Positions 2,947 to 58,492 of a DNA stretch of 64,000 nucleotides are shown one piece after another. A program made the translations under genes and the position numbers. This stretch comes from Scyliorhinus canicula (taxonomy: Eukaryota), in the NCBI RefSeq assembly GCF_902713615.1, contig NC_052155.1:115839316-115903315 (forward strand), in the 5' to 3' direction. The notes under the pieces were generated by a model, which saw nothing but the letters and a program-made list of their open reading frames with translations, made no database searches and was not told where the DNA came from. Numbering within the stretch: the stretch's first letter is position 1; each line of letters opens with the position of its first letter.

Positions 2947-5900
2947 CGAAACCCCCGTGGTAGTACCCCTGGAAAAACCAAATAGCCGCTCGTGATGGGT
3001 CTGGTTGGTGGCCGTACATTGGAGGGACCTAAGAGCATGGAGCGCGTCGGGGAGGACCTCCTGCCAATGGGAGGTCGGGAGCTTCCTGGACCGGAAGGTC
3101 AGTAGGATGGTCTTCCAGACCATCGCGTTCTCCCTCTCCACCCGCCCGTTCCCCCTGGGGTTATAGCTGGTAGTCCTGCTCAAGGCGATGCCCTTTATGA
3201 GCAGGTACTGACGCAGCTCGTCACTCATAAAGGACGAACCCCTATCGCTGTGTACATAGCTGGGGAAACCAAACAGGGTGAAGATACTATGCAGGGCCCT
3301 AATGACTGTGGGAGGTCATATCGGGGCACGGGATAGCAAAGGGGAAGCGAGAGAACTCGTCTATTACGTTCAGGAAGTACACATTCCTATTGGTCGAGGG
3401 GAGTGGCCCTTTGAAATCGATACTTAGGCGTTCAAAGGGCCGGGAGGCCTTGACCAGGTGGGCCCTGTCTGGTCTATAGAAGTGCGGTTTGCACTCCGCA
3501 CAGATCGGGCAATCCCTGGTGATGGCTTTTACCTCCTCGGTGGAGAAAGGCAGGTTTCGGGCTTTGATGTAGTGGGCGGGCCGGGTGACCCCCGGGTGGC
3601 AGAAGTCATTGGGGATAGCTTTGAGGCGGTCGTCTTGTGCGCTGGCGCACGTGCCACGGGACAGGGCATCTGGGGGCTCGTTAAGCTTCCCCGGTCGGTA
3701 CATGATATCGTACTTGTAGGTGGAGAGTTCGATCCTCCACCGTAGGATCTTATAGTTTTTAATTTTGTCCCTTTGTGAGTTGTCAAACATAAAGGCAACC
3801 GATCTTTGGTCGGTGATGAGGGTGAACCTCCTACCTGCGAGGTAGTGCCTCCAGTGACGTATAGCTTCCACGATGGCTTGTGCTTCCTTTTCGACCGAGG
3901 AGTGTCGAAGTTCCGAAGCGGAGAGGGTTCGGGGGCAAAAGGGCAACTGGTCTCCCTGCCTTACTTAGTGTGGCAGCGAGAGCAACCTCTGAGGCATCGC
4001 TCTCTACCTGGAAAGGGACGGATTCATCCACCGCCTGCATGGCCGCTTTGGCGATGTCTTCCTTGATACGAGTGAAGGCCTGACGAGCCCATCCGATAGA
4101 GGGAAGAGTGTGGCCTTAAATAGTGGGCGGGCTTTGTCCGCATACTGAGGGACCCACTGGGCATAATATGAGAAAAGCCCCAGGTACCTTTTGAGGGCCT
4201 TGGGACAATGAGGGAGAGGGAGCCCAGGTCGGGGCCCAGGACTCCGTTTTCCATGACATAGCCGAGGATGGCTAGCCTGGTCATGCGGAAAATGCATTTC
4301 TCCGTGTTGTAAGTAAGATTAAGTTTCTGGGCAGTTTGGAGAAATCGATGGAGGTTAGCGTCGTGGTCCTGCTGATCATGGCCACAGATGGTGACGTTGT
4401 CCAAGTACGGAAACGTGGCCCGCAGCCCGTACTGGTCCACCATTCGGTCCATTGCTCGTTGGAACACTGAGACCCCATTCGTGACGCCAAAGGGAACCCG
4501 GAGGAAGTGGAAGAGGCGGCCGTCAGCCTCAAACGCCGTGAAGTGGCGGTCCTCCGGGCGGATTGGGAGCTCGTGGTATGCAGACTTCAGATCCACCGTG
4601 GAGAAGACGCGATAGTGGGCGATCTGATTCACCATGTCTGCAATCCTGGGGAGGGGGTACGCATCGAGGAGCATGAACCGATTAATGGTTTGGCTATAGT
4701 CCACTACCATTCGGAATTTTTCCCCGGTCTTGACGACCACCACCTGAGCTCTCCAGGGGCTATTACTGGCCTCTGTGATCCCCTCACGTAGGAGCCTATG
4801 GACCTCGGTTCTGATAAACACCCTGTCCTGCAGGCTGTACCGCCTGCTGCGAGTGGCTACGGGTTTGCAGTCCGGCGTGAGATTGGCAAAGAGTGGAGGG
4901 GGGTCGATTTTTAGCGTAGCAAGGCTGCAAATAGTGAGCGGGGGCAAGGGCCCGTCGAAGCTGAGTGTGAGTCTTTTCAGGTTACACTGGAAGTCGAGTC
5001 CCAGTAGAGTGGGGCGCAGAGTTCAGGGAGCACGTACAGCTGGAAGTTCGAGTAGCTAGTGCCCTGGATCGTTAGGGTCGCAACCGTGCGCCCTTGGAGG
5101 TGAACAGAGTGAGAGCCCGAAGCGAGGGAGATAGTTTGCCGTGCAGGGAAGATAGAGAGCGAACAGCGTCTTACCAGATCTGGGTGTACGAAGCTCTCGG
5201 TGCTCGGAGTCGAAGAGGCACGATGTCCTGTACCCGTTGATTTCAATGGTCATCATGGAGTTGCGGAGATGTTTCGGATGCGACTGGTCCAAAGTCACCG
5301 CGCTGAGTTGCGGGTAGTCAGCGGCTGGATCAACTGTGCTGGAGTGGCCCCGTGATGACTGCCCTCTGAATTCGTAGCCTTCGAGGCGATTTTCTGAGCG
5401 AGGAGAGGAAGGATACCAAGATGCCCGCCCCCGTGGATCGCACGTGGCGGGCGGCGAGGAAGATGGCGGCCCCCATGAGTCGCACGTGGCCGGCCGCGTG
5501 GAGGGGGGTTGCCAAGATGGCGGCCCCCATGAGTCGCATGTGTCGTTTGGGGGCGGAGTCGGAGTACAGGCCGCAGCATTTCGGGGCCTGCGGGCCTGTG
5601 GAGTTTGAAAACGAGTGCTCTGGGAGGCTGCGGAAGAGTTAGGAGATGGGGCCTGCTTTGCCAGGCAGACCCGGGCATAGTGTCCCTTGCGACCGCAGCT
5701 GCTGCAGGTCGCGTTACGGGCCGGGCAATACTGCCGTGGGTGCTGGGGCTGCCCGCAAAAATGGCATCCTGGAGCTGCGTGGTGGCTGGGTGGCCGCGCG
5801 GCGCAGGCCTGGGGAAGTCGCTGGTCGGGGGCCCAGGATGGGGTCGCTTGGTCCGCGGGGAATGAGGTGAGGCTGCGGAACGAGACCAATTCTACCGTGT

Positions 5901-6691
5901 CCTCTAGATTCTGGGCCCCTTTTTCGAGCAACCGCTGGCGTACATAGTTTGATCTGAGGCCTGCCACGTACACATCCCCGACGGTGAGCTCCATGTGCTG
6001 TTCGGCTGATACAGCCTGGTAATTACAGTCCCGAGCTAAAGTCTTTAAGTCCCGCAGGAATTCTTCCAACGACTCCGCGGGGCGCTGGCGGCGGGTTGTA
6101 AAAATATGGCGCGCGTAGACCTCATTGATGGGCCTCATGTACATTCGATCTAGCATGGCTAGGGCCCCCGTATACGAGTTAGTACTATTGAGTTGAGTAG
6201 ATATACGGTGGCTCACCCTTGCGTGCAGTAGATTGAGTTTCTGCTCCTCTGTAGTTTCTGGAGTACTTGGATTCAGCTAGGTAGGCCTTAAAACATCTGA
6301 GCCAGTGTTGAAAGATTTCTCTTGCCTCTGCAGCCTGCGGGTCGAGTTCTAGTCAGTCAGGTTTGAGGGCTGATTCCATAGTCGTTTTCTTCTAGTTTCC
6401 TAAGACTATTAAATTGATGTGACCATCAATTCACAAGACACGTGGTTGAAAGTGAACAGTGGTTTTAATAGTCTTACAACAGAACCTGCCTACGACGTGA
6501 TGAACTGGCAGGCAGGCTCACGACTGCAAAGCTTTATACTTCCGGTTAGTGGGAGGAGGCATGGGCGGAGCCCAGTACAAACTCATCTCCCCCAATGGGC
6601 AGAGCCACGCAACTGCTCGTATACCGAGCTAACATGAATACAGAACATCATATAACAACAGTGTGAATTACGCGGAATGTGATTCACCACA
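2947..6691 (-). mobile_element. Ty3/Gypsy (Mag-like) LTR retrotransposon A: 5' LTR, gag-PR-RT-RH-IN, 3' end missing
   Basis: Gag ATG at 6379; double CCHC knuckle CHFCGQPQHPRQYC..CSSCGRKGHYARVC; protease LFDS; RT YLDN; RNase H; integrase; frameshifted. Confidence 0.93.
6415..6691 (-). repeat. 5' LTR of element A (277 bp)
   Basis: TGTGGTGAA...CATCA termini on the minus strand; TATAAA and ATTAAA inside; immediately upstream of gag. Confidence 0.85.
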
Positions 6692-6748
6692 GGTAGCTTC
6701 CCCTTTTTCGGGATCAACAAAATCGTCACCTTGTCAACGTTGCTGGCA

Positions 6749-6780
<32 letters not shown>

Positions 6781-9848: not shown

Positions 9849-10501
9849 TGTGGTGAACGTATTGTACTAACCATTCACCACTGTATTACATTGTATCACG
9901 CTGTTGCCCATGTGGGCTCCATCTATGGACCATTGTATTGTACTACAGAGAATGTATCATGTTGGTGCCCTTGTGGGCTCCGCCCCCTTGAGGGGACATA
10001 TAAAGAGCAGCTGCCCTGTAGGCGGCTCTCACTAGCAGAGCAGTCGCAGCCAGGCACTGTTCTCGTCGATTAAAGTCACTGTTCACTTCAACTCTCTGTC
10101 TCGCGTGAATTGATGGTCGCATCAATTTAATCGAATACAACATCGCTATGGAAGCAGCCGTCAAACCTGACTGACTGGAACTCGACCCACAGGAAGCCAA
10201 AGGAATTTTTCCACACTGGCTCCGATGTTTTGAGGCCTCCCTCGCCGCCTCCTCCTTGCCCACCATTACCAATGAACAGAAGCTGAGCCTCCTCCACGCT
10301 CAGGTGAGCCATCAAATCTCTGTACAACTACGTGAAGCCGATGAACGAACTGTACGCGCGGCATCTCCTCACCACTTGTTGCCAATGCCCCGGAGAATCG
10401 CTTGAGGAGTACCTACGCGACCTCAAAGTCCTCGCGCGAAGCTGCAACTACCAGGCCGTCACGGCCTCTCAACATATGGAACTCACCTTCCAGGACACCT
10501 A

Positions 10502-10606
10502 ATGTAACGTAATGTAAATCGCTTATTGTCACAAGTAGGCTTCAATGAAGTTACTGTGAAAAGCCCCTAGTCGCCACATTCCGGCACCTGTTCGGGGAGG
10601 CTGTTA
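10502..10606 (-). mobile_element. 5'-truncated SINE inserted in gag of B
   Basis: Reverse complement of the 3' half of the SINE at 18438-18626, with a short repeat tail. Confidence 0.8.
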
Positions 10607-10781
10607 CGTGGCTGGAGTCAGGTCCAACTACGTCAGACAGCGCCTGCTCGAGAAAGGCGCCCTCGACCTAGAAGAGACGGTAAAACTAGCCACCTCCCTA
10701 GAAGTAGTGTTCCAAAGCCTCAACGCATTCCCGTCGGATCACCCGACCCCCCTCGTGGACCCCCGACTAGAGAGTACCTCA

Positions 10782-11165
10782 GGCCTGTGCCACGTGGCTG
10801 CCCGCCCAACCCAGGGGGCTACCCTGCTATTTCTGCGGCTAGCACCAGCACCAAGGCAAGGCCTGTGCCGCGCGGCTGCCCGCCCAACCCAGGGGGCTAC
10901 CCTGCTATTTCTGCGGCTAGCACCAGCACCAAGGCAAGGCCTGTGCCGCGCGGCTGCCCACCCAACCCAGGGGGCTATCCTGCTATTTCTGCGGCTAGCA
11001 CCAGCACCAAGGCAAGGCCTGTGCCGCGCGGCTGCCCGCCCAACCCAGGGGGCTACCCTGCTATTTCTGCGGCTAGCACCAGCACCAAGGCAAGGCCTGT
11101 GCCGCGCGGCTGCCCACCCAACCCAGGGGGCTACCCTGCTATTTCTGCGGCTAGCACCAGCACCC
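10782..11165 (+). repeat. 78-bp tandem repeat, about 5 copies, within gag of B
   Basis: Unit GGCCTGTGCCGCGCGGCTGCCC...CACCAAGGCAA; 26-aa periodicity in the ORF track. Confidence 0.95.
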
Positions 11166-12335
11166 CAGGCAGCACTGCCCGGCTCAGAATGCGAACTGCA
11201 GCGACTGCGGCAAAAAGGGAGACTTTGTCAAAGTTTGCCTGGCCTGGTCCAAATCCTCCAAATCGCAGGCCCGACTCTTGGACTCAGGCCCGCAGACCCC
11301 GCAGTGTGGCTGCGTGCCAGTCGGCTCTGCCCCCTCCGGACGCGTCATCTGCCTCGTGTTGTCCGTGGGGGCAGTCATTTTCAACTCCGCACAACACGTG
11401 TAACTCATGGGGGCCCCCACCTTGGACGTCATCTTCCTCCCTGCCCGACACGTGCGGCCAACGGGAGCTGCCATCTTGGCCGCCATCTGCAATGCCGCCT
11501 GACACATGTGACCGACAGGGGCAGCCATCTTGGGACCACCCCATCACCTCCGACCACGCCGGCTACCCGCAACTCGGCACGGTCACTCTTGACCAGTCAT
11601 GGCCAAAACACCTCCAGAACGCCATGATGACCGTCCGGGTCAATGGACACGAAACGCCTTGCCTGTTTGACTCTGGGAGCATGGAGAGCTTCATTCACCC
11701 AGATTCGGTAAGGCGCTGTTCGCTCCAAATCTTCCCTGCACTTGAAACAATCTCCCTCGCTTCCGGATCGCACTCAGTGCAGATCCAGGGGTACACTGTC
11801 GCGAACCTTGCAATACAGGGCGCTGAGTATGCCAATTTTAAACAATATGTACTCCCCGATCTCTGCGCTCCTCTCCTGTTGGTACTGGACTTCCAGTGCA
11901 ACCTCAGGAGCCTAACCCTGAAGTTTGGCGGGCCCCTACCCCCACTCACCGTATGTAGCCTCGCGACCCTGAAGGTCGACCCTCCCCCGCTCTTCGCAAA
12001 TCTCACCGCCGACTGTAAACCAGTCGACACCAGAAGCAGGCGGTACAGTATCCAGGACAGGACTTTTATGAGGTCCGAGGTCCAGCGATTCTTGCGGGAA
12101 GGGATCATCGAGGCCAGTAATAGTCCCTGGAGAGCTCAGGTGGTGGTCATCAGGACTGGGGAGAAGAAGCGGATGGTTGTAGGCTACAGCCAAACCATAA
12201 ACCGGTACATGCACCTCGATGCGTACCTCCTCCCCCGGATAGCGGACATGGTTAATCAGATCGCACACTACCGAGTCTTTTCCACGGTGGATCTGAAGTC
12301 CGCATACCACCTGCTCCCAATCCGCCCAGAGGGCT

Positions 12336-15300
12336 TGTGGTGAGATAACCACTGTAGTTATGTGTACTGCAGTAGGGGGATGTATGCCTGTACCTGTAAT
12401 ACAGGTTCCTCTGGTCAGCCCCTGCCGGCTAGCTCCGCCCACAGGGAGCTTATGTATAAATGTATGAGAGCTGCTCAGACCCTCAGTCTACAGTTGCGGA
12501 TGGAGGGACAACATCGTACAGCAATAAAGCCTCTATTGTACTAGTCTCCCGGCTTTGAGTATAATTGTTAGCGCCACAATTTATTGCTGTACGATTTCCC
12601 AGCCACCATGGACATCAGAATCAAGCCTGACCGTCTGCAGCTGGATCCACATTCGCCTCACGCCAGAAAAGACTTTGATCACTGGCTCGCAGTCTTCGAG
12701 GCCTACATCTCTTCAGCACACCCTCCCCCGACGGAGGCTCAGAAAAAGCAACTCCTGTACTCCAGACTTAGCTCCAGCGTCTTTCCGTTCATTCGAGATG
12801 CGACCGACTACACCGCAGCTATGGAACTGCTCAAGGAGAATTATGCACCATCGACGAACACCCTGTTTGCGAGGCATCAACTTTCTACTCGCGTCCAGCA
12901 GCCGGGTGAGTCGATTGAGGACTTCTGGAGGGCCCTTATACCTCTGGTACGAGACTGCGACTGCCGGGCCCTCAGAAGCCGCGGAACATTCGGATTTACT
13001 CATGCGCGATGCCTTCGTTACAGGCATTGCATCGGACCCCATCCGGCAACGACTGCTGGAAGGGGTCGCCCCCGACCTCGCGGCCGCAAAGGCCCTGGCG
13101 CTCTCCATGACGGCCGCCTCCCGTAGTGCGCACACTTACTCCGCTAGCCACTCGGCCCACCCGTCCTACCCCTCGTGGACCCCGCAAACGGCTCCCCAGG
13201 CCCATCCGTCCCACCCCTCGTGGACCCCGCAAACGGCCCCCCCAGCAGCCGCCCCCGCGCACTATGCCTGCGCTGCCCGCCGCACCGCACCCCCTGGGGG
13301 TCCCCACTGTTACTTCTGCGGCCAACAGAAGCACCCTCGCCAACGCTGCCCGGCCCGCACAGCGACCTGCAAAGCTTGTGGAAAGAAAGGCCACTTTGCA
13401 GCGGTGTGTCAGTCCCAGACGGTCGCCGCTATCGCGCCGCCGGTCCCCACGCCTCAGCCGCTCCCTCAATGGGCCCCGCCGTCCGCTTCCCCCGACCCCA
13501 CGTGCAATCAGTGGGCGCCGCCATCTTTTGCTGCCCCCGCCACGTGCGCCCCATGGGCGGCGCCATCTTCATCCACCACAGCCATGTGCGTTCCATGGGC
13601 GCCGCCATTTTGTTCCGACCCCACAACGTGCGCTCCATGGACGCCGCCATTTTACCCACAGGTACTGCGGATGCCGCCATCTCGTCTCCAGGGGCCGCCA
13701 TCACGGGACACGGGTCGCTACCGCTCCTCGTCGGACTCATCTGACTCAACCGCCGACCAACCACTGCTCGCCTCCGTTACGCTCGACCAGTCCCGTCCTC
13801 GCAACCTGGCACCCTCTTCCACATCGGTGCTGGTCAACGGCCATGTGACCTCCTGCCTCATCGACTCCGGGAGCACCGAGATCTTCGTCCACCCGGACAC
13901 GGTAAGGCGCTATTCCCTTGCGATCCATCCCGCCGACCGGCAGATCTCCCTTGCCTCCGGTTCCCACTCTGTCCCGATCCGGGGTTTCTGCCTGGTTAAA
14001 CTCACTGTACAGGGTGTTGAATTCGACCGTTTCCGTCTGTACATTCTCCCCGACCTCTGCACTTCACTCCTACTAGGCCTGGATTTCCAGTGCAATCTCC
14101 AGAGCCTCACCCTCAAATTCGGTGGACCCCTACCTCCCCTCACCGTTTGCGGCCTCGCGACCCTCAAGGTCGAGCCCCCCTCCCTCTTTGCCAATCTGAC
14201 TGTGGATTGCAAGCCCGTCGCCACCAGGAGCAGATGGTACAGCACCCAGGACAAGGCCTTCATCAGGTCCGAAGTCCAGCGGCTGCTTCGGGAGGGTATC
14301 ATCGAGGCCAGCAACAGCCCTTGGAGAGCCCAGGTGGTAGTGGTTAAGACCGGGGAGAAGCACAGGATGGTCGTGGACTACAGCCAGACCATCAACCAGT
14401 ACACGCAGCTCGACGCGTACCCCCTCCCCCGCATTTCTGATATGGTCAATCAGATTGCACAGTACCGGGTCTTCTCTACTATTGACCTGAAATCCGCCTA
14501 CCACCAGCTCCCCATCCGTAAATCTGACCGTCCCTACACTGCCTTTGAGGTGGACGGTCGTCTGTACCAATTTCTGAGGGTTCCCTTCGGCGTCACGAAT
14601 GGGGTCTCGGTCTTTCAGCGAGAAATGGACCGAATGGTTGACCGGTACGAATTGCAGGCCACCTTCCCGTACCTCGACAATGTCACCATCTGCGGCCATG
14701 ACCAGCAGGACCATGATGCCAACCTTTATAAATTCCTCCACACCGCATCTCTCCTTAATCTCACGTACAACAAGGAGAAATGCGTGTTCCGCACAGACCG
14801 CTTAGCCATCCTTGGCTACGTAGTCCAAAACGGACTACTGGGGCCCGATCCCGACCGCATGCGCCCCCTCATGGAGCTCCCAATTCCCCACTGCCCCAAG
14901 GCCCTCAAACGCTGCCTTGGGTTTTTCTCTTATTACGCCCAGTGGGTCCCGCAATACGCAGACAAGGCCCGGCCACTTATCCAGTCCACACATTTTCCCC
15001 TCTCGGCCGAGGCACAACAGGCCTTCGCCTGCATTCGATCTGACATAGCCAGGGCGGGGATGCACGCCGTAGACGAGACTCTGCCTTTCCAAGTAGAGAG
15101 CGACGCTTCAGATGTCGCCCTTGCCGCCACGCTGAATCAGGCCGGCAGACCCGTGGCATTCTTTTCACGCACCCTCCACGCCTCCGAAATTCGGCATTCC
15201 TCTGTCGAAAAGGAAGCCCAGGCAATCGTTAAAGCGGTGCGGCACTGGAGGCATTACCTGGCCGGCAGGAGATTCACTCTCCTCACTGACCAACGGTCGG

Positions 15301-16949
15301 TAGCCTTCATGTTCAACAACACGCAGCGGGGCAAGATCAAGAATGACAAAATCTTGCGGTGGAGAATCGAGCTCTCCACCTTTAACTACGAGATCTTGTA
15401 TCGCCCCGGCAAGCTCAACGAGCCCCCAGACGCCCTCTCCCGAGGTACATGTGCCAGTGCACAAGTGAACCAGCTCCGTGCCTTGCACGACAGCCTTTGC
15501 CATCCGGGGGTCACCCGCTTGTACCATCTGATCAAAGCCCGCAATCTGCCTTACTCCGTCGAGGAAGTACGGATAGTCACCAGAGACTGCCAGATCTGTG
15601 CGGAGTGCAAGCCGCACTTCTACCGGCCAGATCGCGCGCGCCTGGTGAAAGCATCCCGCCCCTTTGAACGCCTCAGCGTGGACTTCAAAGGGCCCCTTCC
15701 CTCTACCGACCGCAACACCTACATCCTTAGTGTGGTCGATGAATTTTCTAGGTTCCCCTTTGCCATCCCATGCCCAGATATGACGTCTGCCACCGTCATC
15801 AAGGCCCTGGATTCCATTTTCGCCCTGTTCGGTTTCCCCGACTATATCCACAGTGACAGGGGATCCTCATTCATGAGCGATGAGCTGCGTCAGTTCCTGC
15901 TCAGCAGGGGTATCGCCTCCAGCAGGACGACCAGCTACAACCCCCGGGAAACGGGCAGGTAGAGAGGGAGAACGGGACGGTATGGAGGGCTGTCCAGCTG
16001 GCCCTACGGTCCAGGAACCTCCCAGCCGCTCGCTGGCAGCAGGTCCTCCCTGACGCGCTCCATTCCATTCGGTCGCTACTGTGCACCGCAACTAACAGTA
16101 CACCCCATGAACGTGTTTTTGCCTTCCCTAGGAAGTCCACATCCGGAGTGTCGCTCCCGACTTGGCTCACGACTCCGGGCCCAGTCCTTCTCCGTAGGCA
16201 TGTACGGCACCACAAGGCGGAACCCCTGGTGGACAAAGTACGCCTTCTCCAGGCCAACCCTCAGTATGCCTACGTGGAGTTCCCCGACGGCCGCCAGGAC
16301 ACAGTCTCGCTCCGGGACCTGGCTCCCTCAGGTGCCGATCCCATGCCCACACCCCTTCCTGCGCCAACCCCAGCGCCCCCCTATTCGTCCCCATCAGGTC
16401 CATCCCTCATGCCCCTGCCCACCCTGGAGGACATGGAAGATTTTGGCTTGCTCTCGGAGTCATCCCGCCAGCAGCCAGCACCAACACCGCCAGCACCTGC
16501 ACCATCGGGGCCATCACCGCCTGTGCCGACGTCACCACCACAGCTACGCCGCTCACAGCGGAACGTCCGACCACCGATTCGGCTCAACCTGTAACCTGCT
16601 AACCGGATGGACTCTTGATTTTCCTTGTTGGACCCTCTTGTAAATAGCATCCTTTGTATTAGAGTTACATGTCACCCCCGCCGGACTCATTTTTACAGGG
16701 GGTGAATGTGGTGAGATAACCACTGTAGTTATGTGTACTGCAGTAGGGGGATGTATGCCTGTACCTGTAATACAGGTTCCTCCGGTCAGCCCCTGCCGGC
16801 TAGCTCCGCCCACAGGGAGCTTATGTATAAATGTATGAGAGCTGCTCAGACCCTCAGTCTACAGTTGCGGATGGAGGGACAACATCGTACAGCAATAAAG
16901 CCTCTATTGTACTAGTCTCTCGGCTTTGAGTATAATTGTTAGCGCCACA
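12336..16949 (+). mobile_element. Full-length young Ty3/Gypsy (Mag-like) element C
   Basis: 243-bp LTRs at 12336-12578 and 16707-16949 with 2 substitutions; TG..CA ends; 5-bp TSD GGGCT (12331-12335, 16950-16954); PPT ACAGGGGGTGAA at 16695-16706. Confidence 0.97.
12608..16594 (+). pseudogene. Single gag-pol polyprotein of element C (~1328 aa reconstructed), broken by two 1-nt indels
   Basis: gccaccATGg at 12608; frames switch near 12975 and near 15948; CCHC x2, LIDSGS protease, RT YLDN, RNase H, HHCC plus DDE integrase. Confidence 0.9.
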
Positions 16950-17789
16950 GGGCTGCCACTACACGGCCTTTGAGGATGACGGCCACCTCTTCCACTTCCT
17001 CCGGGTCCCCTTCGGCATCACAAACGGGGTCTCTGTCTTCCAAAGAACGACGCACCGAATGGTGGACCAGTACAGGCCGCGGGCCACATTTCCGTACCTG
17101 GACAACGTTACCATCTGCAGCCACGACCAGCAGGACCATGACGCCAACCTCCAGAAATTTCTCCAAACCGCCCAAGCCCTCAACCTCACTTATAACAAGG
17201 AGAAATGCGTTTTCCGCACAACCAGACTAGCCATCCTTGGCTATGTCATGGAAAACAGAGTTCTAGGGCCCGACACCATGCGCCCCCTCCTGCAGCTTCC
17301 TCTTCCCCACGGCCCCATTGCCCTGAAAAGGTGCCTCGGGTTCTTTTCCTATTATGCCCAGTGGGTCCCCAACTATGCGGACAAAGCCCACCCACTGATC
17401 AAAGCTACCATCTTTCAATTGGTGGCTGAGGCCCGCCAGGCCTTCAGCCGCGTCAAGGCAGATATTGCCAAAGCCGCGATGCACGCGGTGGACGGGTCCA
17501 TCCCCTTCCAGGTGGATAGCGACACGTCAGAGGTCCCACCCTCAATCAGGCGGGCAGGCCAGTAGCATGTTTCTCCCATATCCTCAACGCCTCCGAAATT
17601 CAACACTCCTCAATTGAAAAAGCCCAAACCATCGTGGAAGCTGTACGGCACTGAAGGCACTACCTCACTGGTAGGAGTTTCATCCTCGTCACCGACCAAC
17701 GGTCAGTAGCCTTCATGTTCGATAATACACAGCGGGGACAGCGCCCTGTCTGGCACATGCGCCAGCGGGCAAGATGACCGCTGCTCATG

Positions 17790-18873
17790 GAATTATGTGT
17801 TCATGCAGGAATTTACCTATTTTCAAACCAGCAGTGAGTCTTGCTGCAGAGCTTCCATCTGACACTCCATACTCTGGAACCTCAGGGGGAGTGAAAATTT
17901 GAAAATCATTCCTTTAGTACAGTTTTTGGAATTGCTTTACGAGTAGACCAACCCTTATGCGACTGCTTCATTTTAATGGTTTTCAGTGTGACATTTCTTT
18001 TCATTCTTCCAGTCGATATGACAGCCTGTGCGCCACGTGATTGTAAATACAAAGAAGCCTGCCCATCAGGCCGTGACTCCATTTGGAGTAACGCAGAAGC
18101 TGATGATGCTGGCAAGGCCAACAAGGATATCAGTCTTCAGGATGTATCGCGTTAAAGGCTAAGGCACAAAAGACTGGCACAGAAACTAGTCTTCCAGAAA
18201 GCTGACAAGAACCCAGACAATCAGCGGGGTGATCCCGTCGGAGATGCACAATGAGCTGTGCACAAGGGACCTATTTAACAGGTTTATGATTTTAATTGAA
18301 GCAGTGAAATCTGTATACACATTTGCCGCATATGTTTAAAAGAATACAAATAATGTTTCTGTATATAAATGTTAACATATCCAAAGGACGGGGGATGTGG
18401 TGATATGCCTGTGAATAGTATTATACAAGTATTGTAAGGGCTGGTTTAGCTCACTGGGCTAAATCACTGGCTTTTAAAGCCGACCAAGCAGGCCAGCAGC
18501 ACGGTTCGATTCCCGTACCTGCCTCCCCGGACAGGCGCTGGAATGTGGCGACTAGGGGCCTTTCACAGTAACTTCATTGAAGCCTACTCGTGACAATAAA
18601 CGATTTTCATTTCATTTCATTTTTCACATAGTTAGCAATGCAACCTCCAATCAGCTGGTGGCGTCAGATCTTGGTCACGTGATGTGGGACACTTGCTAGT
18701 TGGTCGTAAGGCATACAGCAGGACATTCGTACATCGAGGAGTTCCAGAGCAACCTAGTCTGTATTGTATTGTGTATGTTATCCTTCCACGTGTTCATCAA
18801 TAAACGTCATTGTAGTTAAGTCACCAGGAGTTCTATGTGCATCATTGCAACAGCAAGACAACAGAACACAACA
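17790..18873 (+). mobile_element. 3' remnant and LTR (18396-18873) of an older Gypsy element (E)
   Basis: Purine tract AAAGGACGGGGGA followed by TGTGGTG...CACAACA, with internal AATAAA. Confidence 0.6.
18438..18626 (+). mobile_element. tRNA-derived SINE inserted in the LTR of E
   Basis: A box (TTAGCTCACTGG), B box (GGTTCGATTCC), (CATTT)n tail. Confidence 0.85.
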
Positions 18874-19539: not shown

Positions 19540-22500
19540 GGACTTCCAGTGGCGGTCATGAAGGTGTGGTCGCACACAGGGTGGCTCCTCCTACTTGAAG
19601 GTGTTGGTTTTGGCCCCTTCTACCCGAACTTTGGGAAATTTTGGCAGAAAGGTTGTGCGGAGAGTGGAGGGGGATTAGTTCTCCCCTAGATGGGCATGTC
19701 AGCGGGTTATCAAACCCGACAGCGAGAGCCCTGTCTAAGGAGCTTGAGGAGATTCATGGCGCAGCATCAATTGCGAAAATTTGGTGGGGGGGTCATTGAC
19801 TGGAAAAATGCCAATGGAGCAATTGATGGCTTCATTAAGGATGAATTTCAACAGCAGTGTGAAGAAATGTAGAGTGACTGGTCAAAGACAATTGAGGGGG
19901 CAGTGGCACCTGTTCGAGGGCCTTTGGAACTGGTGGATAAGTGTCTGGAGGTACAGGGGTTGACGATCCAGGAGGTGGAGAAGGTGGTGTCTGACCAGAG
20001 TGACCGGATTGTGAGGGTGGAAGCAGAGATGGCGATCCTGGAGGACATGCGTAAAATTCTGCGAGCAACGGTCCAGGCAACAAAATCTGAGGTTTGTGGA
20101 GGGAGGGGAGGGGACGAGTGCAATTGGCTATGTCGTGAGGATGCTGGCCAGGTTTGTGGAAGAGAAGGTGCTGGACAAGGCCTCAGAGGTAGATCTGGCC
20201 CATAGGTCCCTGAGGCAGAGGCCAAGATGGGCAGCAGCGGCGGTGATTGTGTGTAGTGAAGTTCCAGGGCAAGGAAAATATTCTGAGGTGGGCCAGGGCG
20301 CAGCAGGATTGTGATTGGGAAGGAGACCAAATCCAGATTTTAAAGGATATTGGTGTGGAGCTGGCCAAGAAATGGGCAGGGTTCAACAAGGCCAAGAGAG
20401 TGTTGTCCCTGGCCAGACTTTAGGTCACTTGAGAGCCAGGAATATTACTTTTGGAAACCAGGAGAGGTGAATGGCTTTATTAAGAAGCATAAACTGGAAG
20501 CTGGGGGAGGGCTGAAGGGGGATTGTGAGTGCAAGTTCTGTCTTCTCAGAAGTGGGGGGGAGGGGGGGGTGGAAGAGCAGGCGCTGGAGGAGCCATTAAG
20601 GCTAAAGGAGGTGATGGAATGAATTGGTATGACGCAGTCGTGTAAGGCGCAGAAGCCGGATGGCTTCCTGGCAGAATTTTAGGAGCAGTTCACAACGGAG
20701 TTGCCCCCCCCCCACTTTTTGGGCATGTTTAATGGTGGAGAAGGCGTAGGCGTCAGTTTCGCTGATCGCGAAAAAGGGGAAGGATCCATTGGAGTGCGGG
20801 TCCTATAGGTCCATCTCACTGTTGTAAATCGACGTGAAAGTTCTGGCAAAGGTATTGGCGAGAAGGCTGGAGGGATGTTTGCTGGAGGTGATCTCAGAGG
20901 ATCAGATAGGGATTGTGAAGGGGAGGAGCTCTCTATTAATACTAGGAGGTTGTTAAACGTAAATAAGACCCCGTCGGCGGGGTTGGAGGGCTGGAGGTGA
21001 TTGTGTCAGTGGACACAGAGAAGGCCTTTGACCGGGTAGAGTGGAGGTATTTGTTTGAAATTCTGTGGCGGTTTGGGTTCGGACGAGGTTTGTGGCGTGG
21101 GTTCAGTTGCTATATGCCTCCCGCATTGCAAGTGTGGTAATGAATGAGATGAACTTGGGTATTTTGGGCCGCACAGGGGTCGAGGCAGGGGTGTCCACTG
21201 CCCCGCTATTGTTCACATTGCCGATTGATCCCCAAGCGATGGTACTTTGGGCCTCGGCTGAGTGGCGGGGAATTGAGAAGGTGGGGGCAGGGAGCCCCGA
21301 GTGTCATTGTATGCCGTTTACCTGTTGCTGTTCGTAACGGACCCATTAGAAAGCATGGGCAGAATCATGAGCTTACTGGAGAGATTAGAGGCCTTTTCGG
21401 GCTATGAATTTAATGTAGGGAAAAGCGAGATGTTCCAGGTGAGTGCAGCAGGGCGAGGAACGACCCTGGGGACACTGCATTTAAGGTGGCACGGTGTGGT
21501 GAATGAGATTCACATGGTATTATAAGTTACCAATGTCACTCTGTTCCAAGTATATATATATGTATCAATATTGTAAGTGCAGTTGCACTACCTGACCACC
21601 AGGGGGAGTAGCTCTGGGAGTACTCGAGAGTTTGTACTGGGCTCCCCCCTTGGCTCCGCCCAGAGCTCCTCCCCCTGGAGCTGCTGTATAAAGATCCGTG
21701 CCACAGAGTCAGCCAGCCAGTTCACCGAAAGTTCAACGGCTAACAGGCTGGCTCTGTTGTAAGTATATTAAAACCACTATTCTAATCCTACAAGCACGAG
21801 TCCGTAGAATTAATGGTTCCATCACAAGGGAGTGGTTCTGGTACCTGGGGATTCAGGTAATGCACGGGTGGGCCACGATGCACAAGTGGAATTTGACGGG
21901 ATTGGTGGAGGAGGTTAAGGGGGATGCAGAGGCTAAAGAAATTTTTTCCCACTGACTGAGATGTTTTAAGGCCTACCTGGCAGAAGCCAGCACCGCGGGA
22001 ACAACGGAGGAACAAAAACTCAGCCTACTGCACGCGAGGGTAAGCCACAGAATCTCCACACAGCTAAATCTGGCCGGTTCTTACACCGCAGCGCTGGAGA
22101 TATTGGACAAATTTACGTTAGGCCCATTAACGAGGTTTATGCACGCCACGTGTTTACGACTCGCCGTCAGCGGCCTACAGAAACGCTTGCCGAATTTGTT
22201 AGGGAACTGAACAATCTCTCCAATGACTGTAATTATCAAGCCGTTACCGCGGCTGAACATAAGGAGCTTGCTGTGCGGGACGTTTTCGTAGCGGGCCGTA
22301 GATCGAACTACGTGCGCCAAAGATTGCTAGAAAAGGGGGCCCAGGACTTGAGATACTACTGTGGAGGCTGCTACCACTATGGAAGTCTCCTTGCGCAGCC
22401 TCACCTCCTTTCCCACGGACCCCGCGACCTCATCGTGGACCCCCGACCAACAATCCCCCCAGGCCTGTGCCGCACGGCCCCCCAGCTACCGCGCTGCCAA

Positions 22501-25500: not shown

Positions 25501-27615
25501 GCTGGATCCAGACCCCCCCCCCCCCACCCCCACTGAGGAACCCCTTACCCCGTTCCCTATGCTGCCGCCCCCTCGCGCCCCTGATTCCGCAAGCTCGCCC
25601 CACCTGTTCCACGTGCCTGCACCAGCCCGCCCCCAGAGCCCCCAGCCTCTGGTCGAGCCAGAGGTGTATGAAGTTTGGACGAGACCCGCCCCAGAGTCTG
25701 CCATCGTACCCCAGCTCTCAACACCCACCCAGCCACCGCAAGAGGCTGCAACCCCGATGCTCCGCAGATCGAAACGAACAATTCATCCACCAGACAGACT
25801 AACTCGGTGAGCCACCACCCCCGCCAGACTCGATTTTTTTCACAGGGGGTGAATGTGGTGAATGAGATTCACACGGTATTATAAGTTACCAATGTCACTC
25901 TGTTCCAAGTATATATATGTATCAATATTGTAAGTGCAGTTGCACTACCTGACCACCAGGGGAGTAGCTCTGGGAGTACGCAAGAGTTGTACTGGGCTCC
26001 CCCTTGGCTCCGCCCAGAACTCCTCCCCCTGGAGCTGCTGTATAAAGATCCGTGCCACAGAGTCAGCCAGCCAGTTCACCGAAAGTTCAACGGCTAAAAG
26101 GCTGGCTCTGTTGTAAGTATATTAAAACCGCTATTCTAATCCTACAAGCACGAGTCCGTAGAATTGATGGTTCCATCACAAGGGAGTGGTTCTGGTACCT
26201 GGGGATTCAGGTAATGCACGAGTGGGCCACGATGCCCAAGTGGAATTTGACGGGATTGGTGGAGGAGGTTAAGGGGGAACCTTAAAAGGTGGGATGCGCT
26301 ACACCTCAACTTGGCAGGGTGGGTGCAAGCGGTGAAGATTTTCCTCCCCAAGGCCTATTTTTGGGGAGTAACTGCATTAATCTGCAATAATTTGTGTGGG
26401 TAGGGAAGGTGCAGAGGGTGAAGAGGGCTCTGTTGCAAAGGCAGAGGCGGGAAGGGGGTGGTGCTCCCGAATTTGTTGCATTATTATTGGGCAGCGAATG
26501 TAGAGAAGGCGAGATGATAGTGAGAGAGACAGGGGGGTCAGATTAGAGGAGTCTTGCAAGGGTATGAGCCTGATGACCCTGGTGACAGCCCCACTGTTGT
26601 TCGCCCTGAGGAAGTAAACGAGGAGTCGGGTGGTGCAATCTAGGAGGCCTTTTAAACTGGGTCACATGTCGATGATGACTCCACTGGGGCGGGAGAGGGG
26701 GCGATGGGATGTATAGGAGATGGAGGGAGGAGGGATTTGCAGGGCTAGAGGAGCTGCAGGAGAGTTTAGAGCTACCAAGGGGGAGTGAGTTTAGATATTG
26801 GCAGGTGCAGGACTTTGCGATTAAGGAGCTGCCTTCGTTCCTTCAGGTGCCAGAGTATATGCTTCTGGAGAAAATGTTCCTGGTTGGGGGGGGGGGGGGG
26901 GAATGGTAGGATTCGAGATATATATGGGTGGTTGGGGGAGCAGCCTTAGTGAAAAGAATCAAGTGGAAGTGGGGAGGGAGATAGGAAGGGGACTTTGGTG
27001 CAAAGTAATGTGCCAAGTCAACTCAACCTCCTCCTGAGCAAGGATGAGTCACATACAATTTGAGATGGTACACAGGCTCCAGGTGAGTGTTTTTGTTCCC
27101 CCAGAGGTAGCAGGCGGGTGCGAGAGGTGTGGGAGGGGACCGGCGACCATGTCCATATGTTCTGGGGGTGTGAGGAATTGGAGAACTTTTGGGAGGCGGT
27201 GTTCAGGAACTTATTGAGGATTGTAGGGGGTTGAGATGAAGCCGGATCCTATGGTATCGATTTTTGAGATGTTGGAGATGCTGGAGCTGCAGAAAGGAGC
27301 CGATGTCATGGCCTTCGCCTCTCTGATTGCCCGGCGACGGATAATTTTGAATCGGAGGTCGGCTGCGGCGCTGGGGCTTGCGCCATGGATGGGAGACTTG
27401 TTCGAGTTTCTCAGGTTGGAAAAAATTGAATTTGCCCTAAGAGGGTTGGAGGACAGTTTCAAAGCACGGTGGAGGCCGTTCATGGCTATGTTTGAGGAAC
27501 TGTTTGGAGAGTGGAGGGGGCAAATAGGGGAAAAAATGTACAAACTGTATACTCTGTTGCAAGTTAAGGTTGTGTTATTATGTTGAATATGTTTGGAATA
27601 AAATATTTTTTAAAA
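19540..27615 (+). mobile_element. Old L1 with 5' end and ORF1, internal deletion of the endonuclease region, degraded ORF2; host of element D
   Basis: ORF1 fragments 19800-20490; RT fragments 20570-21494 continuing after 26179; C-terminus ...EKIEFALRG...WRPF; AATAAA tail; AATTTCCAA at both flanks (19530-19538, 27619-27627). Confidence 0.82.
21495..26178 (+). mobile_element. Ty3/Gypsy (Mag-like) element D, two LTRs, primer site and gag start replaced
   Basis: LTRs at 21495-21824 and 25854-26178; TSD CACGG/CAAGG; PPT ACAGGGGGTGAA; gag-PR-RT(YLDN)-RH-IN with stops and frameshifts. Confidence 0.95.
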
Positions 27616-32818: not shown

Positions 32819-33291
32819 GGGTGGAAAGGTGTTCCACCCAGCAGGGAATAGGGGGCTTTCTTAATAGCAGATATGTCTTCCCGCTGTCATTAAAATAAGT
32901 AGCTCCTTTCGAGGGGCACAACTAAAAAAGAAATTAGGAAACAATAAACTTATACAAACAGTTGTAGATTCAGTTCTTAAGATTAGAGAGACGGGCAAGC
33001 AAATACCATGGAAGTATTTGAAGTAATGAGAATGTTAAAACGTAGGCACTGGTGGACAAGAAGGCATTTATTGTAGGGATTGGATTGGATTATTGTCACG
33101 TGTACCGAGGTACAGTGAAAAGTATTTGTCTGCAAGCATTTCAACAGATCATTCAGTACATGGGAAGAAAAGGGAATTAAACAAAATTCACAAAAATACA
33201 TAATAGGGCAACACAAGATATACAATGTACTACATAAGCAATGTAAGAAGTCTTACAACACCAGGTTAAAGTCCAACAGGTTTGTTTCAAA

Positions 33292-33328
33292 CACGAGCTT
33301 TCGGAGCACGGCTCCTTCTTCAGGTGAA
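33292..33328 (-). ncRNA. Second hammerhead copy in the inverted arm
   Basis: Exact reverse complement of 34364-34400. Confidence 0.75.
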
Positions 33329-34363
33329 TGGAAAGGCTTGTTCCAGAAATGTTTATATAGACACAGTCAGAGATGCCCGGAATGCGAGCACCTGCAGGCA
33401 ATCAAATCATCAAAGATGCAGAGAGAGAGGTAACTCCAGGTTAAAGAGGTGTGAATTGTCCCAAGCCAGTTCAGTCGGTAGGCCTCTGCAAGTCCAGGCT
33501 TGTTGGTGGGGGCCGAATGTAATGCGACATGAATCCCAGATCCCGGTTGAGTCCGCATTCATGCGTGCGGAACTTAGCTATAAGTTTTTGCTCAGCAATT
33601 TTGCGTTGTCGCGTCTCCTGAAGGCCTCCTTGTAGAATGCTGACCCGGAGATCAGAGGCTGAATGTCCTTGACTGCTGAAGTGTTCCCCAACTGGAAGGG
33701 AACAGTCCTGCCTGTTGATAGTCGCACGATGCCCGTTTATTCGTTGTCGCAGTGTCTGCATGGTCTCGCCAATGTACCACGCTTCGGGACATCCTTTCCT
33801 GCAGCGTATGAGGTAGACTACATTGGTCGAGTCGCACGAGTATGCGACTCGTGCGACTCGACCAATGTAGTCTACCTCATACGCTGCAGGAAGGATGTCC
33901 CGAAGCGTGGTACATTGGCGAGACCATGCAGACACTGCGACAACGAATAAACGGGCATCGTGCGACTATCAACAGGCAGGACTGTTCCCTTCCAGTTGGG
34001 GAACACTTCAGCAGTCAAGGACATTCAGCCTCTGATCTCCGGGTCAGCATTCTACAAGGAGGCCTTCAGGAGACGCGACAACGCAAAATTGCTGAGCAAA
34101 AACTTATAGCTAAGTTCCGCACGCATGAATGCGGACTCAACCGGGATCTGGGATTCATGTCGCATTACATTCGGCCCCCACCAACAAGCCTGGACTTGCA
34201 GAGGCCTACCGACTGAACTGGCTTGGGACAATTCACACCTCTTTAACCTGGAGTTACCTCTCTCTCTGCATCTTTGATGATTTGATTGCCTGCAGGTGCT
34301 CGCATTCCGGGCATCTCTGACTGTGTCTATACTGTATAAACATTTCTGGAACAAGCCTTTCCA

Positions 34364-34400
34364 TTCACCTGAAGAAGGAGCCGTGCTCCGAAAGCTCGTG
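34364..34400 (+). ncRNA. Minimal type I hammerhead ribozyme motif of the Penelope terminal repeat
   Basis: CAC-CUGAAGA-A-GGAGC-cgu-GCUCC-GAAA-GCUC-GUG: core boxes, stem II, palindromic AGCU stem III. Confidence 0.75.
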
Positions 34401-35229
34401 TTTGAAACAAACCTGTTGGACTTTAACCTGGTGTTGTAAGACTTCTTACTGTGCTCACCCCAGTCCAACGCCGGCATCTCCACATCATACATAAGCAATG
34501 GCATTGGATGAAGCATACAGGGTGTAGTGTTAATGAGGTCAGTCAATAAGAGGGTCATTTACGAGTCTGGTGACAGTGGGGAAGATGTTTTTGAGTCTGT
34601 TCGTGCGTGTTCTCAGACTTCTGTATCTCCTGCCCGATGGAAGTTGGAAAAGTGAGTAAGCCGGGTGGGAGGGACACTTGATTATGCTGCCCGCTTTCCC
34701 CAGGCAGCGGGAGGTGTAGATGGTGTCAATGGATGGGAGGCAGGTTCGTGTGATGGACTGGGCGGTATTCACGACTCTCTGAAGTTCCTTGCAGTCCTGG
34801 GCCGAGCAGTTGCCATACCAGGCTGTGATGCAGCCCAATAGGATGCTTTCTATGTTGCATCTGTAGAAGTTGGTACGGGTTAATGTGGACATGCCGAATT
34901 TCCTTAGTTTCCTGAGGAAGTATAGGCGTTGTTGTGCTTTCTTGGTGATAGCATCGACATGAGTGGACCAGGACAGATTTTTGGTGATGTGCACCCCTAG
35001 GAATTTGAAACTGCTAACCATCTCCACCTAGGCCCCGTTGATGCTGACAGGGGTGTGTACAGTACTTTGCTTCCTAAAGTCAAGGGCAGCTGGACAAGGA
35101 GACTAGGTGTGAGTTCAGGGATCCTGCAGTACTTTGAATGAGCAACCTTTTGTCCATATCTAAGGTTGATTCTTGCGATGGTGGGGCTGTCATGAGCAGA
35201 GATTAAATCGATTAGATTATATTAATTGG

Positions 35230-58060: not shown

Positions 58061-58492
58061 CGACGCATGCGCGGAGGGCATTTAAAACCTGCCTTTGGAG
58101 GAAGGTGCCCCTGTCGTTGCCTGAGCCGATGCAACAGGAGGGGTTTGAATGCCTTTAATAATATTTGCCTGTTTCTTTGAACTGGCATCTACCATACAAA
58201 ATAAAAAAATGAGGAATAACATCAGACGGCGACAGTTGCAGTCAGGGATGGCAGCAGTGAAGTAGGCCGCCTTTGCGAGGTCCTAGTGCGCGGGGAGGGT
58301 CGTTGCAGGTTCCTTATTTAAAGGGTGACGCGGATTGAAGATGATCAGAGTCTCCAGGAGGCGGCAGTGGCTGGACGGAGGCTGGAGTCCCCAAGGGAGG
58401 CATAAGCATAGCATTGCTATCATTCAGACGCCTCTGGACAACGCTCTTCGCCGCAGCCGGGCACACTTCCCCGCCCCACCTCGGCACTGGCC
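58061..58492. promoter_or_regulatory. Divergent RPL7/RDH10 promoter region
   Basis: ATGs about 470 bp apart; NRF1-like CGCATGCGC near 58065; TATA-like TTTAAA near 58081 and TATTTAAA near 58315. Confidence 0.7.

Follow-up and report, generated by a model that had tools for sequence, protein, structure and literature searches.

Self-priming of reverse transcription has reportedly been demonstrated in the retrotransposon Tf1; the other elements for which it has been proposed are mainly chromoviruses related to Tf1. In the tRNA-primed HIV-1, AAUAAA at the genome's 5′ end is concealed by pairing within a poly(A) hairpin; this hairpin is local and is present in both LTRs. Tf1 and Tf2 of S. pombe, Tj1 of S. 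japonicus and the Tf1/sushi group are Ty3/gypsy elements without a tRNA primer-binding site (PBS), in which the PBS directly behind the CA of the LTR pairs with the element's own LTR, over 11 nt in Tf1 (PMC7175516, PMC10085805, PMC4600332). According to PMC7175516, the first 11 bases of Tf1 are paired with the PBS, and cleavage by RNase H falls between bases 11 and 12; according to PMC10085805, chromoviruses usually carry a chromodomain. In plants, self-primers have been predicted for Tcn1 (gypsy) and for TAR, Houba and Osr-1 (copia) from a complement to the LTR of at least 10 bp that starts 0–5 bp behind the 5′ LTR (PMC6317226). Tcn1 is a chromovirus and TAR a copia element, both from plants, and the available portions of PMC6317226 do not mention a link to a poly(A) signal.

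The window analysed here, a stretch of 64,000 nt from Scyliorhinus canicula, contains four Ty3/gypsy elements (A to D) of a clade in which a self-complementary primer-binding site is a real and clade-wide feature. As in the Tf1 group, a tRNA PBS is absent and the PBS right behind the LTR pairs with the LTR; a complement of the kind used to predict the plant self-primers is found as well. Unlike Tf1, the clade has no chromodomain and mostly a YxDN RT motif, its pairing has a core of 12–13 bp that usually ends at the poly(A) hexamer, and its predicted primer is an internal segment some 30 nt from the cap instead of the first bases of the RNA. Unlike in the HIV-1 hairpin, the partner of the hexamer lies outside the LTR, at the PBS.

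The inverted repeat of element A and its counterparts

The features of element A, all on the minus strand, are the following.

6415..6691, minus: 5′ LTR, TG...CA, 277 bp, with homologous ends in sister copies
6533..6538, minus: TATA box (TATAAA), 74 nt ahead of the arm end
6503..6508, minus: initiator-like CCAGTT, from the sequence; from TATA spacing, transcription is predicted to begin near 6506, roughly 30 nt upstream of the arm
6464..6476, minus: 5′ arm, the predicted self-primer; its final six letters form the poly(A) signal ATTAAA
Between 6464 and 6463, minus: predicted cut
6414..6463, minus: loop of 50 nt, which opens with ACC and contains an inner hairpin, the end of the LTR and the spacer of 1 nt; minus-strand strong-stop DNA is predicted to be copied from it
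Near 6447, minus: predicted poly(A) site, by analogy with C
6401..6413, minus: 3′ arm, the PBS; begins with TTT, not TGG
2948..6379, minus: gag-pol remnant, with RT, RNase H and integrase core by Pfam

On the plus strand, 6401–6413 reads TAAGACTATTAAA and 6464–6476 reads TTTAATAGTCTTA. The two arms make up an inverted repeat, perfect over 13 bp, that encloses a loop of 50 nt. A sequence-only reading of this DNA had reported a 13-of-13 complement between the LTR segment that ends in ATTAAA and a segment 1 nt past the LTR, and the letters confirm it. In the sense direction, the LTR runs from 6691 to 6415 and is followed by the spacer A (6414) and the 3′ arm; a leader of 21 nt then separates the arm from the gag ATG at 6379. 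As the arm adjoins the 5′ LTR's end with a spacer of 1 nt, the 3′ arm occupies the primer-binding site, a point that the earlier reading did not make. Element A is decayed, with an in-frame stop at codon 9 and several frame breaks, and stops near 2948 without a 3′ LTR. No tRNA was found by a scan of the window, and a search of 6300–6750 against Rfam gave a single match, below the cut-off (E 0.88).

The whole window was scanned for perfect arms less than 200 nt apart. Besides a palindrome at 33.3–34.4 kb, the only inverted repeats of at least 13 bp were that of A and a 16-bp repeat in C. The chance of a perfect complement to the A 13-mer anywhere in an LTR of the same length and composition is 2.8e-6. 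The 13 pairs have predicted probabilities of 0.54–1.0. For the region of 137 nt as a whole, the folding energy is marginal (z −1.93, with 8 of 200 shuffles as good), so that energy alone would not have decided the matter.

The other three elements lie on the plus strand.

9849..10137, plus: element D, 5′ LTR 9849–10124, PBS from 10126
12336..16949, plus: element C, LTRs 12336–12578 and 16707–16949, 5-bp target-site duplication (TSD)
12513–12528 and 12580–12595, plus: arm and PBS of the 16-bp helix of C, with a 51-nt loop
21495..21924, plus: element B, 5′ LTR 21495–21824, arm 21760–21772

Element C has both LTRs, a purine tract and the 5-bp TSD, whereas A retains the 5′ LTR only; copies of family C are about 99% alike, as in a young family. 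That A shares the register of C with different letters, as claimed earlier, holds for both elements. The helix of D is 9 bp long in the window copy, which is decayed, and is absent from its minimum-energy fold (z −0.54); most sister copies have 12 bp, a C.C mismatch and 4 further bp. Sister copies of B carry a helix of 13–14 bp, and the window copy has lost its leader and PBS. The distance from the TATA box to the arm end is 74 nt in A, 73 in C, 75 in D and 85 in B. Together with initiator-like sequences, this spacing predicts that transcription begins upstream of the arm by about 30 nt in A, C and D and by about 40 nt in B.

Several rearrangements were seen around these elements. In B, the PBS, leader and first gag codons are replaced by 100 bp (21825–21924) resembling the 3′-LTR flank at 26179–26278 with 2 differences; the leader is normal in 29 of 29 sister copies, and gene conversion, recombination or an assembly fault are possible origins of the flank copy. 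Positions 9849–17740 form a nested stack in which D is interrupted by element C (12336–16949) and by a 108-bp repeat (10501–10608), a second copy of which lies at 18514–18621. The gag of D contains a 78-bp tandem repeat (10703–11170), and no 3′ LTR of D was seen in the window.

Pairing among copies and relatives

From the own genome, 285 loci were gathered. After removal of 10 that did not align over the junction (the window copy of B among them), 1 with a gap at the anchor and 21 duplicates, 253 copies were kept: 144 of family A, 29 of B, 50 of C and 30 of D. They are the best-scoring hits of much larger families and thus a non-random sample. The PBS begins with TTT in 246 of the 253 copies and with TGG in none (0/253).

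In family A, positions 1–13 pair in 131–144 of the 144 copies and position 14 in 0 of 144. Complementarity across the family had been expected by the sequence-only reading; scored as copy-by-copy pair counts and not via a consensus, it is borne out, all 13 pairs being intact in 96 of 139 copies (the 144 minus five picked by PBS pattern, with the window copy as reference). These 139 copies hold 88 double Watson-Crick changes against 3 double mismatches, while single-side changes number 22 in the arm only and 31 in the PBS only. The 110 copies found by Gag protein alone contain 85 of the 88 double changes. As the 88 fall into six types, at positions 6, 7 (two types), 8, 12 and 13, they stem from related copies and represent about six inherited events. 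When the PBS was permuted among the 144 copies, in a control that ignores their relatedness, the maximum was 35 and none of 2000 rounds reached the observed number.

The other families agree with A. The first 12 pairs are perfect in 26/29 B, 47/50 C and 15/30 D copies. Position 12 changes from A-T to G-C in 4 of 29 copies of B, where position 14 changes on the PBS side alone; in D, 28 of 30 copies have a mismatch at position 13, right after the 12 pairs. The earlier notion of compensatory change is upheld by double changes inside families A and B, the comparison of A with C providing only two points. Across four arm variants, PBS letters 6–13 follow the arm in 27/28, 15/17, 33/36 and 9/11 copies. 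The coupling is incomplete: the arm is unchanged in 5 of 5 copies picked for one position-6 PBS variant, and arm changes at position 12 remain G.U in 3 of 6. Shared variants per site, in 131 copies, amount to 0.62 at arm positions 6–13, 0.50 in the 32 nt upstream, a figure that includes CpG sites, and 0.20 in the loop. Among the 13 predicted pairs of the inner hairpins, no double change occurred in more than one of these 131 copies, the five commonest pair types per pair being considered.

Outside the own genome, an alignment-driven scan yielded 80 metagenome and 10 MAG loci. The gag start was located in 46, of which the 42 with sufficient upstream DNA were scored. All 42 have a helix of 9–19 bp; it is at least 13 bp long in 36, in the same register, and the commonest length is 13 bp (15/42). 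Shuffled sequences gave at least 11 bp in 5 of 840 cases and 13 bp in 1 of 840. In a control gypsy lineage of the own genome, of which 3 of 6 fetched stretches could be scored, TGG stands behind the LTR and self-pairing is limited to 4–6 bp. Outside relatives with both LTRs have a repeat that ends just ahead of the 3′ arm, and TSDs of 5 bp.

A large part of the 42 stems from a single assembly. The 42 reduce to 24 families, each represented by the member with the longest helix, which biases the lengths upward. G.U pairs are absent from positions 1–13 (0 of 312 cells) and appear from position 14 on. The motif RCC stands directly behind the arm in 19 of the 24 families and often opens a second hairpin; this count and those for positions 1–2 are lowered by three families (L125, L132, L164) anchored 1–2 nt off. 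The hexamer A[A/T]TAAA lies inside the 5′ arm in 14 of the 24 families and in the loop in 3 (L094 and L107 among them), while the register is kept in the 10 families without a hexamer in the arm, such as L126 and L153. The anchoring on the hexamer proposed from the sequence thus holds in all four own families, and in only 14 of 24 outside. What is invariant is the register and not the hexamer: across the 24 families, the 3′ arm is right behind the LTR end. Eight close relatives (L171–L178) lie on contigs filed in bacterial MAGs and are probably host DNA binned by mistake.

Priming and the poly(A) signal

The reading preferred here, at a probability of roughly 0.7, is that the PBS pairs with the element's own LTR instead of with a tRNA, and that the segment ending at the hexamer is the primer, in a Tf1-like and tRNA-independent manner. 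It builds on the pairing, its fixed register, the lock-step change within and between families, the lack of a TGG site and the use of the hexamer in C-type RNA. The last letter of the arm faces the first letter of the PBS, 1 base from the LTR end, which is the spot required for the 3′-OH of a primer. This geometry is common to elements A to D and the outside relatives.

Transcription would start about 30 nt upstream of the arm. The arm would then pair with the PBS and so cover the hexamer; as the PBS is located outside the repeat, this would affect the 5′ LTR alone. The RNA would be cut at the 3′ end of the arm, probably by the RNase H of the RT as in Tf1, and the RT would extend the cut end, copying about 50 nt. 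The strong-stop product would jump to the 3′ end of the RNA via the approximately 17 nt between the hexamer and the poly(A) site, an overlap that would account for the frequent coincidence of the arm's end with the poly(A) signal. Plus-strand synthesis would copy 12–13 nt of the attached primer, whereby the PBS would be rewritten as the complement of the arm. Since the TATA box precedes the arm end by 73–75 nt (85 in B), the primer is predicted to be internal, unlike that of Tf1.

Arm positions 6–13 vary as fast as the upstream sequence and yet stay matched, and the inner hairpins have no shared double change, which favours primer copying over selection on the hairpin alone. Copying of the primer into the PBS is also favoured by the end of the match at 12–13 nt, near the figures for Ty3 RT, whose two active sites are about 13 bp apart and which copies 12 nt of primer (PMC5371799). 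According to the same source, inheritance of the PBS from the primer does not occur in Ty3 or Ty1, so that PBS rewriting is not general for gypsy elements; the variants left unmatched here also speak against such copying.

RNA was examined in one public single-cell poly(A) run, of which about 1 in 100 reads were mapped onto C. The mapped reads derive from many copies of 88–93% likeness, among which 5′, 3′ and solo LTRs are not distinguishable. Sense depth peaks in the LTR and drops from 75 to 30 at 12543. Poly(A) tails of C-type reads are found near 12545, and an A-tail begins about 17 nt behind AATAAA in 22 reads; tailed reads and depth drop together indicate that in C-type RNA the hexamer is used for polyadenylation. 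Fourteen reads continue past the LTR end as far as the PBS. In this single run, of a library type not built to show them, neither a start site nor a pile-up of 5′ ends was seen.

With a functional hexamer, the helix might serve solely to mask that signal in the 5′ LTR and so prevent a short RNA, priming being achieved by another means. Folding predictions go in this direction: the unpaired fraction of the hexamer is 0.01 in the 5′ context versus 0.82 in the 3′ context for C, and 0.12 versus 0.35 for A. The 14 reads that pass into the PBS and the hexamer in the arm of all four own and 14 of 24 outside families also agree with it. Hiding as the only function is nevertheless unlikely. It leaves the element without any primer site, and does not account for the register retained in the 10 of 24 families without a hexamer in the arm, including two with the hexamer in the loop (L094, L107). 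It would allow G.U pairs and a sliding register, neither of which is seen at positions 1–13, and paired sites change as quickly as unpaired ones. As the register survives without the hexamer and no other primer site is present, hiding the hexamer cannot be the whole story; judging from the predicted folds, it is likely a side role of the helix.

Self-priming could also proceed in trans. A short or full-length RNA polyadenylated in the LTR would be trimmed by host 3′-end processing to the helix edge and used as primer on an uncut template. Such a primer would account for the tendency of the arm to end at the poly(A) signal and need not be the 5′ end of the RNA, and polyadenylated ends 17 nt behind the arm do exist. 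This route is also improbable, as the template's own arm competes in cis, with pair probabilities of up to 1.0, and the RCC conserved behind the arm in 19/24 families, where a second hairpin often opens, agrees better with a structure-guided cut.

Copia elements include cases with half-tRNA primers (PMC6317226). Likewise, a fragment of a host tRNA or some other small RNA might bind to the PBS here, and the complementarity to the LTR would then be secondary. This is very unlikely, given that the PBS does not start with TGG and that its letters 6–13 vary by subfamily and track the arm in the proportions given above. A chance inverted repeat in AT-rich sequence, with which the marginal folding energy of A would agree, can be dismissed, as the earlier reading had already argued, in view of a P of about 3e-6 and of helices of at least 13 bp in 36 of 42 relatives versus 1 of 840 shuffles.

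A broader proposal is put forward tentatively, at less than even odds. The clade would represent a second origin of gypsy self-priming, in widespread animal elements devoid of a chromodomain and with a mostly YxDN RT. An internal primer in R would end at the poly(A) signal, its 13 nt would be dictated by the distance between the polymerase and RNase H sites, the PBS would be rewritten in each round, and the helix would block 5′ polyadenylation.

Placement among Ty3/gypsy elements

The order protease, RT, RNase H, integrase was identified by Pfam in C and B, and RT, RNase H and integrase in A. The closest relative of solved structure is Ty3 RT (E 5.5e-48). A Chromo domain was not matched at E ≤ 0.1 in the C-termini of C or B nor in 6 of 6 full homologues, none was listed among the precomputed domains of 120 homologues, and of 20 Chromo loci of the own genome, none lay near a pol match. 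In all four window elements and in 85 of the 120 homologues, the catalytic motif of the RT is YxDN instead of YxDD, and YxDD members of the clade are dispersed over the tree. Ty1 RT with the D211N change retains polymerase activity in vitro, according to PMC2148107. A literature search for YxDN motifs gave no paper on this clade among the entries listed.

The nearest named homologues are from rays. The RT-RNase H-integrase region is 57–65% identical to proteins from an anemone, a tunicate, molluscs, whipworms and a psyllid, an identity across distant animals that may reflect horizontal transfer. Ten pattern matches in viral contigs included no relative.

A gypsy element of the same genome, taken to be Mag-like from its motifs, was used for comparison. 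Its Gag is weakly similar to that of the clade (E 0.02–0.14) and its RT-RNase H is about 31% identical. In a tree of 37 rows with this Mag-like lineage as the only outgroup, the clade is set apart by a fully supported split and a long branch. With the Mag lineage, the clade shares a compact size of 4–4.6 kb, short LTRs, a mostly 5-bp TSD and one long ORF (PMC3286476). Mag elements prime with tRNA-Leu, -Ser or -Arg according to this source; assignment to the Mag lineage was rejected, the PBS here beginning with TTT and not being a site for these tRNAs.

Saci2/lennie and CsRn1 are likewise animal gypsy elements that are not chromoviruses. The LTR start TGTGGTG fits the CsRN1 motif TGTGGYG (PMC3601003, Table 3), in a comparison by motif alone. 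Saci2/lennie have a 4-bp TSD and a tRNA PBS (PMC12471100, PMC4558846) and were rejected, as the TSD is 5 bp in C and the outside elements and a tRNA PBS is absent. Membership of the Tf1/sushi group was rejected for lack of a chromodomain. The three-duplex pretzel of Tf1 was not clearly found: in 5 copies, only runs of 2–5 bp were seen between PBS-adjacent sequence and the loop. In its place, a hairpin opens directly behind the arm.

A literature search, outside which lay Butler 2001, Goodwin and Poulter 2001, Levin's papers and Repbase, returned no description of such pairing in non-chromovirus animal gypsy elements. Nor were the clade motifs found in the available supplements of PMC6238403 and PMC8556966 or in two tables of PMC13524379. 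What is new from this window is the lock-step change within families with its 13-nt edge, and the mapped poly(A) site. If an internal self-primer in a separate and abundant animal clade is correct, independence from tRNA would have evolved more than once and would not require the capped end of the RNA, and there would be no tRNA site for tRNA fragments to block. The lock-step change would be a genomic record of the number of primer letters copied by the RT. Annotation based on a tRNA PBS would miss or mislabel such elements. As family C is young and its RNA is present in a public run, the cut site and the strong-stop length are testable on native material.

Two further features of the window were noted. 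A long near-perfect palindrome at 33237–34455, with 441-bp arms and a weak GIY-YIG match, is presumably Penelope-like. An open frame at 58412–58984 matches short-chain dehydrogenases (E 3e-24) and is probably a host exon or a retrocopy.
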